DNA of 59,395 bases from Bacillota bacterium (GTDB lineage: Bacteria; Bacillota; Dethiobacteria; DTU022). The translations under genes were made by a program, and so were the position numbers. The notes below the pieces were generated by a model. That model ran no database searches. It was not told the origin of the DNA and saw only the letters and a list, made by a program, of their open reading frames with translations. Every line of letters begins with the position of its first letter. Positions within the stretch are counted from its first letter, which is position 1. This document shows, in pieces, positions 7,664-13,467 of this stretch. Location of the stretch: contig DUVX01000033.1 in NCBI GenBank assembly GCA_012840855.1, positions 1-59,395 of the forward strand. Direction: 5' to 3'.

Positions 7664-9277
7664 ATGACAAAATACATTTTCATCACCGGTGGAGTGGTTT
7701 CATCATTGGGGAAAGGGATTACGGCTGCTTCGCTGGGCCGTCTCCTGAAGGCGAGAGGGTTGAAGCTGACTATTCAAAAGTTTGATCCCTACATCAACTA
7801 CGACCCCGGGACGATGGGCCCGCACCAGCATGGCGAAATATTTGTTACCGAGGACGGGGCCGAGACCGATCTGGATCTGGGGCATTACGAAAGGTTTATT
7901 GATCAGAATTTAACCAAAGAAAACAATATTACTACCGGCAAGGTCTACTGGTCGGTAATCGAGGGGGAGCGGAAAGGGCTCTACCTGGGACAGACTGTCC
8001 AGGTGATTCCGCATATTACCGATGAGATCAAAAGGCGAGTGCAAGGGGCTGCGCAGGAGGGTGCTGTCGATGTGGTCATCACCGAGATCGGCGGCACTAT
8101 CGGCGATATTGAGAGCCTCCCTTTTCTTGAGGCTATCCGCCAGCTGCGCTACGATCTCGGTTGGGAGAATGTGCTCTTCCTTCATGTTACCCTGGTGCCG
8201 TACCTGCCCGCATCGGGCGAGCTGAAGACGAAACCGACTCAGCACAGCGTCAAGGAGCTGCGCAGCATCGGGATCCAGCCCGATATCATTATCTGCCGGA
8301 CGGAGTATCCCCTGAGCAGCGCTGTCAAGCGGAAGATCGCTCTTTTTTGCAATGTTAAGCCCGAAGAAGTGGTAGAAAACCTTGACACCGACAGCATCTA
8401 CAAGGTGCCGCTGAACTTGCAAAAGCAGGGTCTGGATGGGATGGTCGTGCAAAAGTTGGCGCTCCATTGTGGTGGGGTGCAGATGGATGCGTGGAACCGC
8501 CTCGTGGAAAGCATCGACAGCCTGCAGAAAGAGGTTACCGTTGCTCTGGTCGGTAAATATGTGGCTTACGCTGATGCCTATCTCAGCGTAAATGAATCGC
8601 TCTTTCATGCCGGGCTTTCTCACGGGGCTGCCGTGAAGGTCAAATCTATCCCGGCGGAAGATTTTGAAACGGAGGATCCCAGGAAGCTGCTTCAGGGGAC
8701 AGATGCTATCCTCGTCCCCGGCGGTTTCGGACACCGCGGCATCGAGGGGAAGATCAGGGCGGTACAGGCGGCGCGGGAGACGAAGATCCCCTTTTTCGGC
8801 CTCTGTCTGGGGATGCAGTGCGCCGTGATCGAGTTTGCCCGCCATGTGGCCGCCATGGAGGGCGCTCACAGCACCGAGTTTGATGAGAATACCCCCTTCC
8901 CCGTATTTGATTACCTGCCGGGGCAGGACAACAATACCCGCCTGGGGGGTACGCTCAGCCTGGGTGCCCGCCCCTGCTTGATAAAAGAGGGGACGCTGGC
9001 CTGGCAGGCATACAGGACAGGAAGGATCATGGAGCGGCACCGGCATCGATTCGAGTTCAATCTCGATTACCGGAACCGGCTCGAGGAAGCGGGGCTGCTG
9101 TTCAGCGGCTTCAATGAGGCCGACGGCCTGGTGGAGATTATGGAGCTTCCCGGCCACCCCTGGTTTGTGGCTGTTCTCTTCCACCCCGAATTCAAATCGA
9201 GGCCCAACCGGGCCCATCCTCTTTTCCGCGACTTTGTCGGCGCCGCTCTGAGCTACCGCCGCCGGAAAGGGAATTAA
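7664..9277 (+). CDS. pyrG: CTP synthase
   Basis: [33 protein letters not shown]; GATase triad GLCLG and FHPE. Confidence 0.97.
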
Positions 9278-9287
9278 GAGGCGGCGT

Positions 9288-10385
9288 TCAAACGGTGTAT
9301 GAAAGGATCTTTTCCAGCACCGCCTCTGTGAGGCGGTTAATCTCACTGAAGCGCATACTCGGGGCATAGTACGATTCCAGCTTCTGATGGACATCCCGGG
9401 ACCGGGCGATAAAATCGATGGCGGCGTGGAAGGTCCGATCATAGAGGCCTCGGGCGAGGTCGCGCTCTTTTTCCAGGCGCCGCCCGGGGTTTTTTACATA
9501 GGCTGCGGTTTCGATGAGCCGGTCTTCACCGGTCGGCACCAGGATATGGGGGGTAACGCTGTTCAGAACGGCAACCCGGAGCTGCGGGATGATCAGGTGG
9601 TCTATCTTGACGGGATCGAGGGCGCAGTGGTAGACTTCGACAAAAAAGCTGCGCATCACCGCGGCGTCCTTGATCCGGGCGATGAGCTCATTTTTGCCCG
9701 TACCATCGTCTCCACTGATGATGTAGCGCTGGAAATCCCCCACGATGGTATCGAGGTAGCTGATGGGCCCGTCAGGTGTGATCGCTGTGGCGAAGAGATG
9801 GCGCTCCCTTCTCTCCGTATTACTCCGGTTGACCTTGCCGCCAAAGATTTCGCCGATTACCCGCAGTGCCAGCCGATCCAGCCCGGCAGTGTCGAGGCAA
9901 CGGTTTTCCCGGTAGTAATCCTCCACCTCGTCGAGAAAGAGCTTTGCCGCCGCCAGGTAGCGGTAGGCCCGGCGATAGAGACGGGCAGTCTCCCGGTTGG
10001 AACTGAGGATAGCTTCGCGCCGGGCGATTACTTTTGCCTCATCCCAGAACTCCCCCAGGTTGATGATCTCGTCGACGGCTCCGGGATTTTTCGGATCGAC
10101 CATATGCGGCGTCGTCCCGTCGATACAGGCGATCTGCAGCTGGGGGAAAACAATGCCGTCTAAGGATTCGCTGTCGGCGGAGCAACAGTGGAATTCGACA
10201 TCGTAGCCCTGGGCAGTTAATTCCCGGGAAATATTGTACATGAAGGTCGATTTGCCTACGCCCGGGCCTCCCTTGATCACGAAGATGCGCGCGGCGTTAT
10301 CGGCGATGATCTGATCGTAGAATGAGTAGAACCCGTAAGCGGAATTCGATCCCGGAAACATCTTTCTGATATTACCCTGGCCCAT
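9288..10385 (-). CDS. PRK06851-family tandem P-loop ATPase (uncharacterised)
   Basis: FPGSNS..GFYSF, IKGGPGVGKS, HCCSAD..SLD, DGTTPH; second degenerate P-loop GDDGTGK; SD AGGAGG. Confidence 0.8.
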   Translation of the reverse strand: MGQGNIRKMFPGSNSAYGFYSFYDQIIADNAARIFVIKGGPGVGKSTFMYNISRELTAQGYDVEFHCCSADSESLDGIVFPQLQIACIDGTTPHMVDPKNPGAVDEIINLGEFWDEAKVIARREAILSSNRETARLYRRAYRYLAAAKLFLDEVEDYYRENRCLDTAGLDRLALRVIGEIFGGKVNRSNTERRERHLFATAITPDGPISYLDTIVGDFQRYIISGDDGTGKNELIARIKDAAVMRSFFVEVYHCALDPVKIDHLIIPQLRVAVLNSVTPHILVPTGEDRLIETAAYVKNPGRRLEKERDLARGLYDRTFHAAIDFIARSRDVHQKLESYYAPSMRFSEINRLTEAVLEKILSYTV

Positions 10386-10468
10386 GACCAAAAACCTCCT
10401 GCTGATCATTGCTGCTGTCACCTTATAGTATGACCCGATGGAGCCTTCGGTTAAAGCACCCCGGATAC

Positions 10469-10497
10469 TTGTTTTTTTGCGAAGGGGCGGGTATGAT
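10469..10497 (+). promoter_or_regulatory. Putative sigmaA promoter of guaA-B
   Basis: TTGTTT-N17-TATGAT. Confidence 0.5.
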
Positions 10498-10599
10498 CTT
10501 GCAGGGAAGGCAGGAAAATGAAACAACGGGGACGTACCTTCCTGTTGCATTTGCGCACTGCGGAGCCATGAAAAGATTATGGAAGACGGTGAAACAAAT

Positions 10600-11571: not shown

Positions 11572-11706
11572 ATAAAACTACGGGCACACTGCTGATAAAA
11601 TCTGCAGTAAGGGTAATCAATTCATAACTTATATTTGATAACAAAAAGCCGGCAAGCGCCGGATAATAGGGAAAACAGGTAATCAAAACGCATAAAAAAG
11701 CCTCAG

Positions 11707-11734
11707 AAAAGGCCCGGGCTGCCGCCAGGGCCTT
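11707..11734 (-). terminator. Putative terminator of hisF-pdxS
   Basis: AAGGCCC...GGGCCTT stem with A-run on the + side (T-run on minus strand). Confidence 0.5.
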
Positions 11735-11760
11735 ACTAGATCTGTCCGTGATGCAATAAG

Positions 11761-12645
11761 CTAGTTGCCCCGATCCTGCATCCGTTCGGCCGCGCTTAGC
11801 GAGGCGATATCGAGCCCTTTCATCGCTTCACCGAGGCCCCGGGAGACCCTCAGCAGCACTGCTGGGTCATCGTAGTGGGCTGTCGCTTCGACGATCGCTT
11901 CGGCACGGGCCTGCGGGTTCTCCGACTTGAAGATGCCGGAGCCGACAAAGATGCCGTCTGCACCGAGCTGCATCATCAGGGCTGCGTCGGCGGGTGTGGC
12001 GATACCGCCGGCGGCATAATTGAGCACCGGAAGCTTTCCTTCTTCTCTGATCTGTCTGAGCAGGCCTGGAGCTGCCTTCATCTCCTTGGCCATGACCGAC
12101 AGTTCATCATCGGGCGCGTTGATTACCTGGCGCAGCTCTTCCATCACTTTGCGGATATGGCGCACCGCTTCGACGACATTGCCGGTACCCGGTTCCCCTT
12201 TAGTGCGCAGCATCGCTGCCCCCTCGGCAAGGCGGCGTAGCGCCTCTCCGAGATCCCGGGCCCCGCAGACAAAGGGTGTGGCGAAAGCGTGTTTGTCAAT
12301 ATGGTAGCGCTCATCGGCGGGGGTGAGCACCTCGCTCTCGTCGATAAAGTCTACGTCGAGCTCTTCTAGGATTCTGGCTTCCATGAAATGGCCGATACGC
12401 ACCTTGGCCATTACCGGTATCTCGACGGCATCCTTGATGCGCAGCACTATCTCCGGATCGGCCATACGGGCGATGCCGCCGGCGGCGCGGATATCGGCGG
12501 GGACCCGCTCCAGCGCCATTACCGCTACGGCACCGGCGTTTTCGGCAATTTTGGCCTCCTCGACGGTGGTTACATCCATGATCACGCCGTTCTTTTTGAT
12601 CTGGACCGGACTTTGCTTGATCTGAGGTTTGCGTTGTTCCTTCAT
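11761..12645 (-). CDS. pdxS: Pyridoxal 5'-phosphate synthase lyase subunit
   Basis: [46 protein letters not shown]; SD AGGAGG. Confidence 0.97.
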
Positions 12646-12666
12646 TTCCAGTCTCCTCCTACTCGC

Positions 12667-13467
12667 TTAAGATTCAGTGTTGCCCTTTACGGCTGTTGAA
12701 CCCGTCAGCCCCTTCCCGGCAAGAAAGGCCCTGATCCCCCGAATGGAATAATTGCCGTCATGGAGAATCGAGGCTGCCAGAACCGCATCAGCTCCACCAG
12801 CGGTGAGAGCATCGAAAAGATGCTCCGGCCTGCCCGCCCCTCCCGAGGCGATTACCGGTAACGTGACGGCGGCGGTTACAGCTTTTAGCAAGGCCAGGTC
12901 GTAGCCCTGCCGGGTGCCGTCGGTATTCATCGAGGTGAGCAAGATCTCCGCCGCGCCGCGCCGCTCCACTTCAGCGGCCCACTCCACGGCATCTCTGCCG
13001 GTGGGGCGGCGCCCACCTCCTTTGTAGACCTCATAGCGGGCGTTTTCTTCGGGCTGCGCCGGTGCAGTTCTCCGGGCGTCAATGGCGACGACAAGGTGCC
13101 GGCTGCCAAAGAGCCGGGCTCCCTCCTCGATAAGTGAGGGGTTGTCCAGGGCGGCGCTGCCCAGCGATACCCGGTGGGCACCGCTTTTCAGCATCTCTTC
13201 GATCACTGCAGCTGAGTCGATACCTCCCCCCACAGTGAGGCAGAGATCCGTTGCCGACGATATGTCCCGGATGAGACTGCAGGTGAGTGGACGGCTCGCC
13301 GGCGTGGCGGCGATATCGAGTAAAAACAGCTCATCGGCACCCTCCCGGGCGTAAAAAGAGGCGAGTTCAAGCGGATCTCCGGCATCGCGGAGTTGCGAAA
13401 ACTGTATGCCTGTGACCACGCGGCCTTCGCGCAGGTCCAGGCAGGGGATTATTCTGGGATAGCTCAT
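12667..13467 (-). CDS. hisF: Imidazole glycerol phosphate synthase cyclase subunit
   Basis: [43 protein letters not shown]. Confidence 0.92.

Follow-up and report, generated by a model that had tools for sequence, protein, structure and literature searches.

Gene content of the locus

The window analysed in this study is the whole of contig DUVX01000033.1 (C137; 59,395 nucleotides) from the Bacillota bacterium assembly GCA_012840855.1 (GTDB lineage Dethiobacteria, DTU022), a 92.17%-complete metagenome bin that totals 1.88 Mb, is split into 177 contigs and is designated G000 below. It carries side by side the synthase parts of amidotransferases for guanosine monophosphate (GMP), pyridoxal 5'-phosphate (PLP) and histidine synthesis (guaA, pdxS and hisF), whose glutaminase partners are missing, and the present analysis concerns this absence and the possibility that such synthases operate on ammonia. 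The guaA gene (10579–11571, plus strand) encodes 330 amino acids (aa) corresponding to the ATP-pyrophosphatase and dimerisation parts only: the product matches GMP_synt_C (126.8 bits) and TIGR00884 guaA_Cterm (434.1 bits, cut-off 338.75) with PF00117 absent, covers only profile positions 191–512 of the full-length NCBIfam model NF000848, and aligns with residues 209–526 of the 526-aa GuaA of a relative (G012). Convergent to it lies pdxS (11761–12645, minus strand), encoding the lyase subunit of PLP synthase (Pfam SOR_SNZ, 327 bits; TIGR00343, 472.8 bits, cut-off 438.45; 72% identity to PdxS of G012), and 21 bp upstream of pdxS lies hisF (12667–13467, minus strand; Pfam PF00977 His_biosynth, 243.5 bits, cut-off 23.6), the start of which was set by alignment to HisF of G012 (the longest open frame would begin at 13533). 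The neighbouring pyrG (7664–9277, plus strand) encodes a cytidine triphosphate (CTP) synthase of 537 aa with both a CTP_synth_N (432 bits) and a GATase domain (119 bits), scoring 795 bits against the cut-off of 462.75 of NCBIfam TIGR00337 (glutamine hydrolyzing CTP synthase).

A preliminary description of the window, made from its letters and open reading frames, had reported a synthetase-only guaA, a hisF-pdxS pair with a 21-bp gap and the lack of a guaA GATase domain, hisH and pdxT in the 59 kb, all of which is borne out by the above coordinates and profile matches. Its view of pyrG as a further glutaminase-decoupled gene does not hold, given the GATase and TIGR00337 scores and the presence of the GLCLGMQ and FHPE motifs, and for the single promoter that it assigned to hisF-pdxS, a scan of the minus strand upstream of hisF yielded no promoter-like site.

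Between pyrG and guaA lies a conserved, PRK06851-like gene (9288–10550, minus strand; the P-loop gene) with weak P-loop Pfam matches and a score of 303 bits to NF005320 (under the cut-off of 556), orthologues of which are found at 65–84% identity in G002, G004, G005, G015, G017 and G018. On the other side of the locus, a PdaB-like sporulation polysaccharide deacetylase gene (13589–14383, minus strand; Polysacc_deac_1, 132 bits; TIGR02764, 222 bits, under the cut-off of 237.4) occupies the position of hisH in relatives of the G012 type. Next to it, hisC (14484–15581, plus strand) encodes histidinol-phosphate aminotransferase (TIGR01141, 334 bits, cut-off 276.55; 61% identity to the product of the hisH-adjoining gene in G012) and connects hisF with histidine synthesis. 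Additionally, terminator-like hairpins were found just 3' of pdxS (11729–11649, minus strand), and an Rfam scan of window positions 1–20000 returned five tRNAs (2020–2434) only, with no riboswitch or leader near these genes.

Glutaminases missing from the genome

The absence of the partners extends from the window to the whole of this 92%-complete genome. Genome-wide, PF00117 matched two proteins, PyrG (the only match on the window contig) and a 252-aa PuuD/Peptidase_C26-like protein on contig C70, with no TrpG/PabA-type match by this profile. Similarly, the genome gave no match to PF01174 (PdxT), PF13507 (PurQ type), PF00120 (glutamine synthetase, GS; gene glnA) or PF00909 (ammonium transporter), and a 14-genome control of these Pfam profile searches gave the expected results. 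Searches of the genome by tblastn with HisH, PdxT and the N-terminal half of GuaA from G012 returned nothing at E ≤ 1e-3, and those with GlnA, CarA, PurQ and PurS from relatives returned no match; a GuaA-type GATase, fused or separate, was thus found neither by the PF00117 search nor by tblastn with the N-terminal half of GuaA. The purine genes purE, purL and purF are present, with purL lying 69 bp beyond purE and purF next in order across contigs C47 and C41, where the order in G012 is purE-purB-purC-purS-purQ-purL-purF. The partners of HisF, PdxS and GuaA were missing from all eight genomes examined, which belong to four genera, g1 and three others of its family.

Deletions from a conserved gene order

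In G012 and G009, which belong to the same family as G000, purF and a guaA encoding both GATase and synthetase (526 aa) are followed by a convergent pdxT-pdxS-hisF-hisH group and then hisC, and glnA adjoins pyrG on the same contig. The order in G017 is hisC-deacetylase-...-pdxS-pdxT-guaA(full)-carA-Ploop-glnA-pyrG. In G000, G002 and G004 (genus g1) and in G018 (genus g15), the locus reads pyrG-Ploop-guaAC-pdxS-hisF-deacetylase-hisC (guaAC being the short guaA), with 62–87% protein identity and on single contigs of 59 kb (G000), 27 kb (G002) and 222 kb (G018), and G005 (g2) and G015 (g12) likewise display a short guaA plus the hisF-pdxS pair. Hence, glnA, carA, the N-terminal half of guaA, pdxT and hisH have been removed from between retained neighbours. 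The sites of removal are tight: pyrG is separated from the convergent P-loop gene by 10 bp (9278–9287) where glnA adjoins pyrG in relatives, and pdxS from the convergent guaA by 189 bp where pdxT directly follows pdxS in relatives. As the four intergenic gaps at the locus measure only 10, 28, 189 and 121 bp, there is no space in them for remnants of the deleted genes, and no such remnants were detected in this genome at E ≤ 1e-3. The P-loop gene is a bystander flanking two of the deletion sites, that of glnA on one side and that of carA and the guaA N-terminal half on the other. A replacement gene at the locus was ruled out, both the deacetylase and the P-loop gene being present also in G017, which retains pdxT and full-length guaA.

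Short guaA genes also occur in G002, G004, G018, G005, G015 and G020, their similarity to full-length GuaA starting at residue 209–211 (g1, g15 and G020), 197 (G005) or 191 (G015). In G015, purF is still located 5' of the truncated gene, and G020, a member of another family, has a truncated guaA whereas an open frame of 575 aa is found in its congener G027. Because the breakpoints differ by lineage, and because G020 is truncated while G027 is full length, guaA was cut at least twice, and comparison with the full-length sister genes indicates that short guaA is derived by truncation of a fused bacterial guaA. Loss has been caught in progress in G027, in which glutamine synthetase is absent and relics of hisH (residues 137–200) and pdxT (residues 125–189), with one in-frame stop each, persist at L088 ~3820–4011 and L099 ~1990–2184, next to hisA-hisF and pdxS, which are intact. 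The PyrG tree, which has 27 rows (G001 and G004 being omitted as partial, G010 having no pyrG match and the pyrG of G021 being split), is compatible both with one loss in the family and with several.

Partner-contact residues, catalytic residues and selection

HisF residue D98 forms a salt bridge with K181 of HisH, and E71 one with R18 (bioRxiv 10.64898/2026.05.29.728626). The HisF of G000 carries D98H, K99R and E71S, where HisH-bearing relatives have D98 and K99. Among family members, Asp98 was found in 9/9 HisH-bearing genomes versus 0/8 HisH-less ones, the latter displaying H, A, S, A, A, T, S and N at this position, and the distribution of Glu71 is the same (9/9 versus 0/8), with residue 71 likewise varying among the HisH-less genomes and K99 replaced by Arg in five of the eight. 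In a wider comparison spanning many phyla, 75 of 80 HisF loci have Asp at residue 98 and two have Glu, and the three that deviate are the three closest relatives of the clade; residue 71 is variable in this set and is therefore less telling.

A comparable pattern is seen in PdxS (numbered by alignment to B. subtilis 2nv2), where the N-terminal helix motif KKGMAQMQKGG of PdxT-bearing genomes, which we take to be a contact with PdxT, is replaced in G000 and position 13 is Pro throughout g1 and g15. Columns 6, 9, 12, 13, 14, 16, 17, 75, 198, 208 and 210 separate PdxT-bearing from PdxT-less genomes; across independent lineages, Met13 was present in 13 of 14 PdxT-bearing versus 0 of 15 PdxT-less genomes and Val208 in 15/15 versus 0/15. 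Furthermore, 25 of the 28 PdxT-less PdxS proteins score below all 43 PdxT-bearing ones with the Pfam model. In truncated GuaA (7/7), F381 is replaced by Tyr, and D463 and D464 are lost (G012 numbering).

The synthase active sites are preserved. For HisF, we assume Asp11 and Asp130 to be catalytic and R5, E46, K99 and E167 to be gate residues (T. maritima numbering); R5, D11, E46 and D130 are retained throughout, in the family (8/8 HisH-less and 9/9 HisH-bearing members) as well as in the diverse set (80/80 loci), and in G000 HisF K99 is Arg and the Glu of GAAEILL is kept. PdxS retains D24, K81, D102, R147 and K149 (of which D24, K81 and K149 are presumably catalytic), with MDV, MAKVR and RTKGE at the expected positions. 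According to the alignments, decay has affected the partner contacts and spared the catalytic residues. The ratio of non-synonymous to synonymous substitution rates (dN/dS) between G000, G002, G004 and G018 was 0.05–0.08 for pdxS, 0.11–0.15 for the short guaA and 0.16–0.23 for hisF, compared with 0.06–0.15 for neighbouring genes and 0.06–0.09 for the P-loop gene; the values are rough since dS (~0.9–2.1) is saturated, though all are far under 1, pointing to purifying selection on the surviving synthase genes.

An operon of hisD, hisB, hisA, hisI and a HisJ-family phosphatase gene is located on contig C133, without hisH or hisF. Strong PF00977 matches besides the HisF of the locus are copies of hisA (C133 and C174), and the genome has no second full-length HisF, so the hisF of the locus would be the only one serving the histidine pathway. 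Contigs from four RNA libraries match the locus at ≥95% likeness and cover hisF-pdxS and guaA, and three of them span the 21-bp hisF-pdxS gap (X17, 11699–13462, with zero differences; X15, 12074–13041; X16, 12004–12996), which is consistent with co-transcription of the two genes but is no proof of it. Stretches that these contigs leave uncovered, among them the deacetylase region, carry no weight as evidence.

Two hisF genes each are found in G026 (L086, L087) and G028 (L089, L090), one in a hisA-hisF operon without hisH (the G026 copy with Thr at residue 98) and the other adjoining hisH and carrying Asp or Glu at residue 98, followed in G028 by pdxT. In family f1, the hisH-hisF-pdxS-pdxT operon presents an unusual arrangement in which two barrel synthases are paired with two glutaminases. 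Contig C174 (1565 bp) repeats the hisA-hisI part of C133 (4514–5722) with few differences and is probably a strain variant binned alongside.

Co-loss with glutamine synthetase

Among the 31 nearest genomes, PdxS is present in 30, PdxT in 15 and GS in 15; 14 genomes possess PdxS and lack both PdxT and GS, 14 possess all three, and G010 (72% complete) lacks all three. The two discordant genomes are G008, in which GS was not found and pyrG lies at the end of a contig, and G021, which is 82% complete and gave no PdxT. An order-wide count restricted to the 71 genomes of ≥90% completeness identified PdxS in 71/71, PdxT in 43 and GS in 42; of these genomes, 27 lack both PdxT and GS, 41 have both and three have one without the other (G050 with GS only; G008 and G057 with PdxT only, that of G057 being cut by a contig end). 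The state lacking both is found in all four g1 and all seven g15 genomes at this completeness, and two genera are internally divided: in g17, G065 has both genes and G020, G027 and G066 neither, and in g37, G076 has both and G077 neither.

The PyrG tree contains three well-supported independent GS contrasts (five on the best tree). PdxT tracks GS in 3/3 supported contrasts, which are too few for significance (sign test, p 0.25). HisH, classified in the 31-genome set only, tracks GS in one to two of the three, the opposite direction never being observed; its tie to GS is looser because G017 and G030 possess GS and no hisH.

Glutamine-dependent enzymes that remain

The class-I GATase domain of PyrG is complete: GLCLGMQ and FHPE align with those of 26 relatives, and the Cys-His-Glu triad is intact. 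The only peculiarity of G000 is S432, where the 26 others have Arg in GGT(L/M)RLG; this Arg corresponds to R442 of T. thermophilus 1vco and is presumably involved in glutamine binding. Altogether, five glutamine-hydrolysing enzymes are retained, namely PyrG, PurF, AsnB (618 aa, class II), GatA and a long-form NadE (536 aa; contig C162, L191 706–2316). Separable class-I glutaminases and the GuaA domain are therefore gone and fused glutaminase domains persist. GatB and glutamate dehydrogenase are also present, and a single GluRS-type synthetase was found, with no second, GlnRS-type match in the genome. Without GS, the remaining glutamine must be external, or very little of it is needed. GlmS scored above its cut-off in 18 of the 31 relatives and was absent at that threshold from G000–G005, G013, G017, G018, G022, G024, G029 and G030.

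Other observations on these families were made. The nitrilase-type domain of NadE matches Pfam positions 3–133 of 256 (46 bits), and this glutaminase domain may be decaying. In G022 and G024, which have no GS, the only PyrG found (L064 and L063) has Ser for the catalytic Cys (GISVGM versus GLCLGMQ), and a PyrG copy of G030 (L065) has Asn in its place; from their sequences, these proteins appear to be CTP synthases whose glutaminase domain no longer functions, a different route to the same end. A GATase/Peptidase_C26-like protein of ~250 aa with a hydrophobic N-terminal segment occurs in G018 (C8, L071 1031–1789) and G001 (C417, L072). This apparently membrane-anchored protein, found in several relatives, was rejected as a donor in G000, whose genome does not contain it.

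Ammonia as the probable nitrogen donor

We consider it probable (roughly 0.68) that HisF, PdxS, GuaA and PurL are ammonia-dependent synthases in a lineage devoid of GS, the use of ammonia as donor in vivo being what we infer from the pattern of genes and residues. The lineage has lost GS together with every separable class-I glutaminase partner (HisH, PdxT, PurQ with PurS, CarA and the N-terminal GATase domain of GuaA), and has retained the acceptors, i.e. HisF, PdxS, the GuaA ATP-pyrophosphatase and PurL. These synthases would most likely take free cytoplasmic ammonia at the former glutaminase docking site, the anaerobic digester habitat would supply it plentifully, and glutamate dehydrogenase would assimilate it into amino acids. 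Some glutamine would still be required by PyrG, PurF, AsnB, NadE and GatCAB and would presumably be imported. With respect to habitat, 17 sequencing runs from 13 studies contain 50% or more of the words sampled from window positions 9300–13600 (three rows maybe being the source itself), and their labels read biogas fermenter, anaerobic digester, bioreactor or plain metagenome. Runs X20–X24, in which almost none of these words occur, were set aside. Biogas and anaerobic-digester reactors are generally rich in ammonia.

These findings modify the remaining proposals of the preliminary description. That the lineage has dropped its glutaminases is true of the partners of HisF, PdxS and GuaA (8/8 genomes), but not of PyrG, PurF, AsnB, NadE and GatA. 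The alleged alteration of glutaminase-coupling residues is confirmed for HisF (H98/R99) and the N-terminal motif of PdxS, but fails for PyrG, whose GATase is intact bar S432. The HisF substitution does not fulfil the refuting condition that the description had set for such changes, as it is uncommon elsewhere, residue 98 being acidic in 77 of the 80 diverse loci, and the suggested genome search for purQ, carA and glnA found all of them missing, along with purS, so that the losses go further than was proposed. A high-ammonia habitat agrees with the run labels, given that such reactors are generally ammonia-rich. Finally, the gene cluster is inherited synteny and not a newly assembled ammonia-direct module, as the same neighbourhood occurs with glutaminases and glnA in relatives.

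Precedents exist for several of the enzymes. C. glutamicum without hisH grows in the absence of histidine with no effect on growth, and as of 2013 it had the only imidazole glycerol phosphate (IGP) synthase known to behave in this way (review PMC3896937); an ordinary-size HisF apparently runs this step on ammonia in the cell. The two cases differ in that C. glutamicum has a functional hisH that was deleted in the laboratory, whereas here a whole clade is naturally hisH-less and D98 and E71 are gone. Similarly, rescue of a Salmonella pdxJ mutant by yeast SNZ3 alone requires high-ammonia medium, glutaminase subunits being dispensable at high ammonia where tested (PMC6385983), and in a B. subtilis pdxT mutant PdxS alone makes PLP with plentiful ammonium (cited in PMC9997740). 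In both, PdxS/Snz suffices when ammonium is plentiful and the glutaminase is needed at low ammonia only; those systems are engineered or mutant, whereas PdxT is naturally absent from 28 of the 71 genomes here and the PdxS N-terminal motif has convergently decayed. Eight PdxS-only genomes are mentioned but not analysed in a PLP survey of 2023 (PMC9997740). For NadE, a natural glutaminase-free family acting on free ammonia in vivo is given by the single-domain form: in Table 1 of a 2012 survey of ~800 genomes, 'No Glnse' makes up 44% of nadE arrangements, and the same table lists none for guaA (730 genomes), purL (660), carAB or trpDE (PMC3376133). In G000 the situation is the reverse, with guaA, purL, hisF and pdxS lacking a glutaminase and NadE of the long form. 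Main texts of open-access papers and preprints yielded no description of a natural multi-enzyme glutaminase loss; supplementary Table S3 of PMC3376133 and Table S6 of PMC9997740, outside this literature search, may list relevant genomes. The short GuaA can also be compared with archaeal two-subunit GMP synthetase, in which GATase and ATP-pyrophosphatase are separate subunits. Both have a stand-alone ATP-pyrophosphatase polypeptide of ~300 aa, but the archaeal system has a separate GATase subunit gene, and none was found in this genome.

A number of points weigh against the proposed use of ammonia. In vitro, E. coli HisF alone requires unphysiologically high ammonia and a pH above 8, and hisH mutants of E. 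coli and Salmonella are histidine auxotrophs despite ammonia in the medium (PMC3896937). The HisF of G000 scores 288.9 bits with TIGR00735, just below the cut-off of 294.55, although this is its best model (next, WbuZ, 225.7), and the dN/dS of hisF, in ratios that are rough throughout, is the highest of the set. The RNA-library contigs may reflect DNA carry-over, one of the four runs being from the same study as the possible source. All genomes are metagenome bins, including this 92%-complete one in 177 contigs, the supported contrasts for PdxT are few, and HisH loss also occurs with GS present (G017, G030). Glutamine is still used, given that five glutamine-hydrolysing enzymes remain, and ammonia use is thus no general rule for the cell. 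The lack of an ammonium transporter may be added here, which we count as neutral at high ammonia.

A broader version of the ammonia explanation is possible but doubtful: GS loss in this order would repeatedly have gone together with loss of stand-alone glutaminases, no fewer than three times and likely five times or more, and free glutamine would no longer be the central nitrogen donor, with histidine, PLP, GMP and formylglycinamidine ribonucleotide (FGAM) synthesis running on ammonia, translation glutamine being made on tRNA by GatCAB in the absence of a GlnRS match, the fused glutaminase domains perhaps little used, and the convergent changes at PdxS M13/V208, GuaA F381Y and HisF D98 perhaps adapting the ammonia entry site and not simply reflecting decay. 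In that case the GMP synthetase, IGP synthase, PLP synthase and FGAM synthetase of these cells would be natural enzymes that have evolved to depend on ammonia.

An unlikely alternative is that ammonia comes from a novel donor, either a non-homologous glutaminase or the PuuD/Peptidase_C26-like hydrolase on C70, supplying one or several of the synthases by docking or by raising local ammonia. The C70 protein is a free-standing class-I homologue that retains GICRGMQ and WHPE and scores 100 bits with the gamma-glutamyl-GABA hydrolase model of NCBIfam (under the cut-off of 266), and the uniform Pro at position 13 of PdxS in g1 and g15 could mean a new constraint and not shared descent. However, most relatives, among them those keeping HisH, PdxT and full-length GuaA, encode PuuD-like proteins of 240–275 aa that show this same partial match to PF00117; the C70 protein was for this reason rejected as a clade-specific new donor, and there is no positive evidence for the novel shared donor that the preliminary description offered as an alternative. 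HisF residues 98 and 71, moreover, vary across the eight HisH-less genomes in a pattern of relaxed constraint and not of a new interface, and the locus holds no new gene, the deacetylase and P-loop genes being present in G017 as well.

It is more doubtful still that the pathways are dead; the cell would then be an auxotroph that needs histidine, vitamin B6 and guanine or purines from outside, its synthase genes decaying or otherwise employed. The small genome (1.9 Mb), in which GS, CarA, a TrpG/PabA-type match and GlmS were not found, is metabolically reduced, HisF falls under its NCBIfam cut-off, and the hisH and pdxT pseudogene relics of G027 place decay under way in the order. Against this, the synthase genes are intact in eight genomes of four genera at saturated synonymous distance with dN/dS of 0.05–0.23, their catalytic residues are retained, PdxS occurs in 71/71 genomes of the order, hisD, hisB, hisA, hisI, hisJ and hisC are intact, purE, purL and purF are present, and RNA-library contigs cover hisF-pdxS and guaA. 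An artefact of assembly or binning, by which hisH, pdxT, the guaA 5' half and glnA would lie on unassembled or unbinned contigs, is very improbable: absence from a 177-contig, 92%-complete bin is by itself weak evidence and several relatives are fragmented, but the partners are missing from between kept neighbours on single contigs of three genomes, the same state recurs in all four g1 and all seven g15 genomes at ≥90% completeness, and partner contacts have decayed in exactly the partner-less genomes.

The textbook route takes ammonia through GS and then through glutaminase-coupled amidotransferases, and a natural lineage living otherwise was missing, ammonia use by synthase subunits being known so far from test tubes and from laboratory mutants at high ammonium. 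The clade offers natural glutaminase-free GuaA, HisF, PdxS and PurL with glutaminase-bearing sisters at 57–76% identity for comparison, repeated and datable losses tied to GS loss, and candidate residues for a change at the ammonia tunnel entrance. The clade is likewise relevant to the question of how bacteria of biogas reactors tolerate high ammonia and make use of it, and pathway predictors that require pdxT or hisH will miscall such organisms as auxotrophs.

Additional observations

In RNA runs X15 and X18, one contig each joins position 13314 to 14546 and so lacks the 1231 intervening bases, the deacetylase gene among them; with 21 letters on the shorter side, the join may represent another strain or a chance event. 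The first 3000 positions of the window, which contain the five-tRNA cluster (2020–2434), have a G+C content of 0.434 compared with 0.56–0.63 in the rest of the window.

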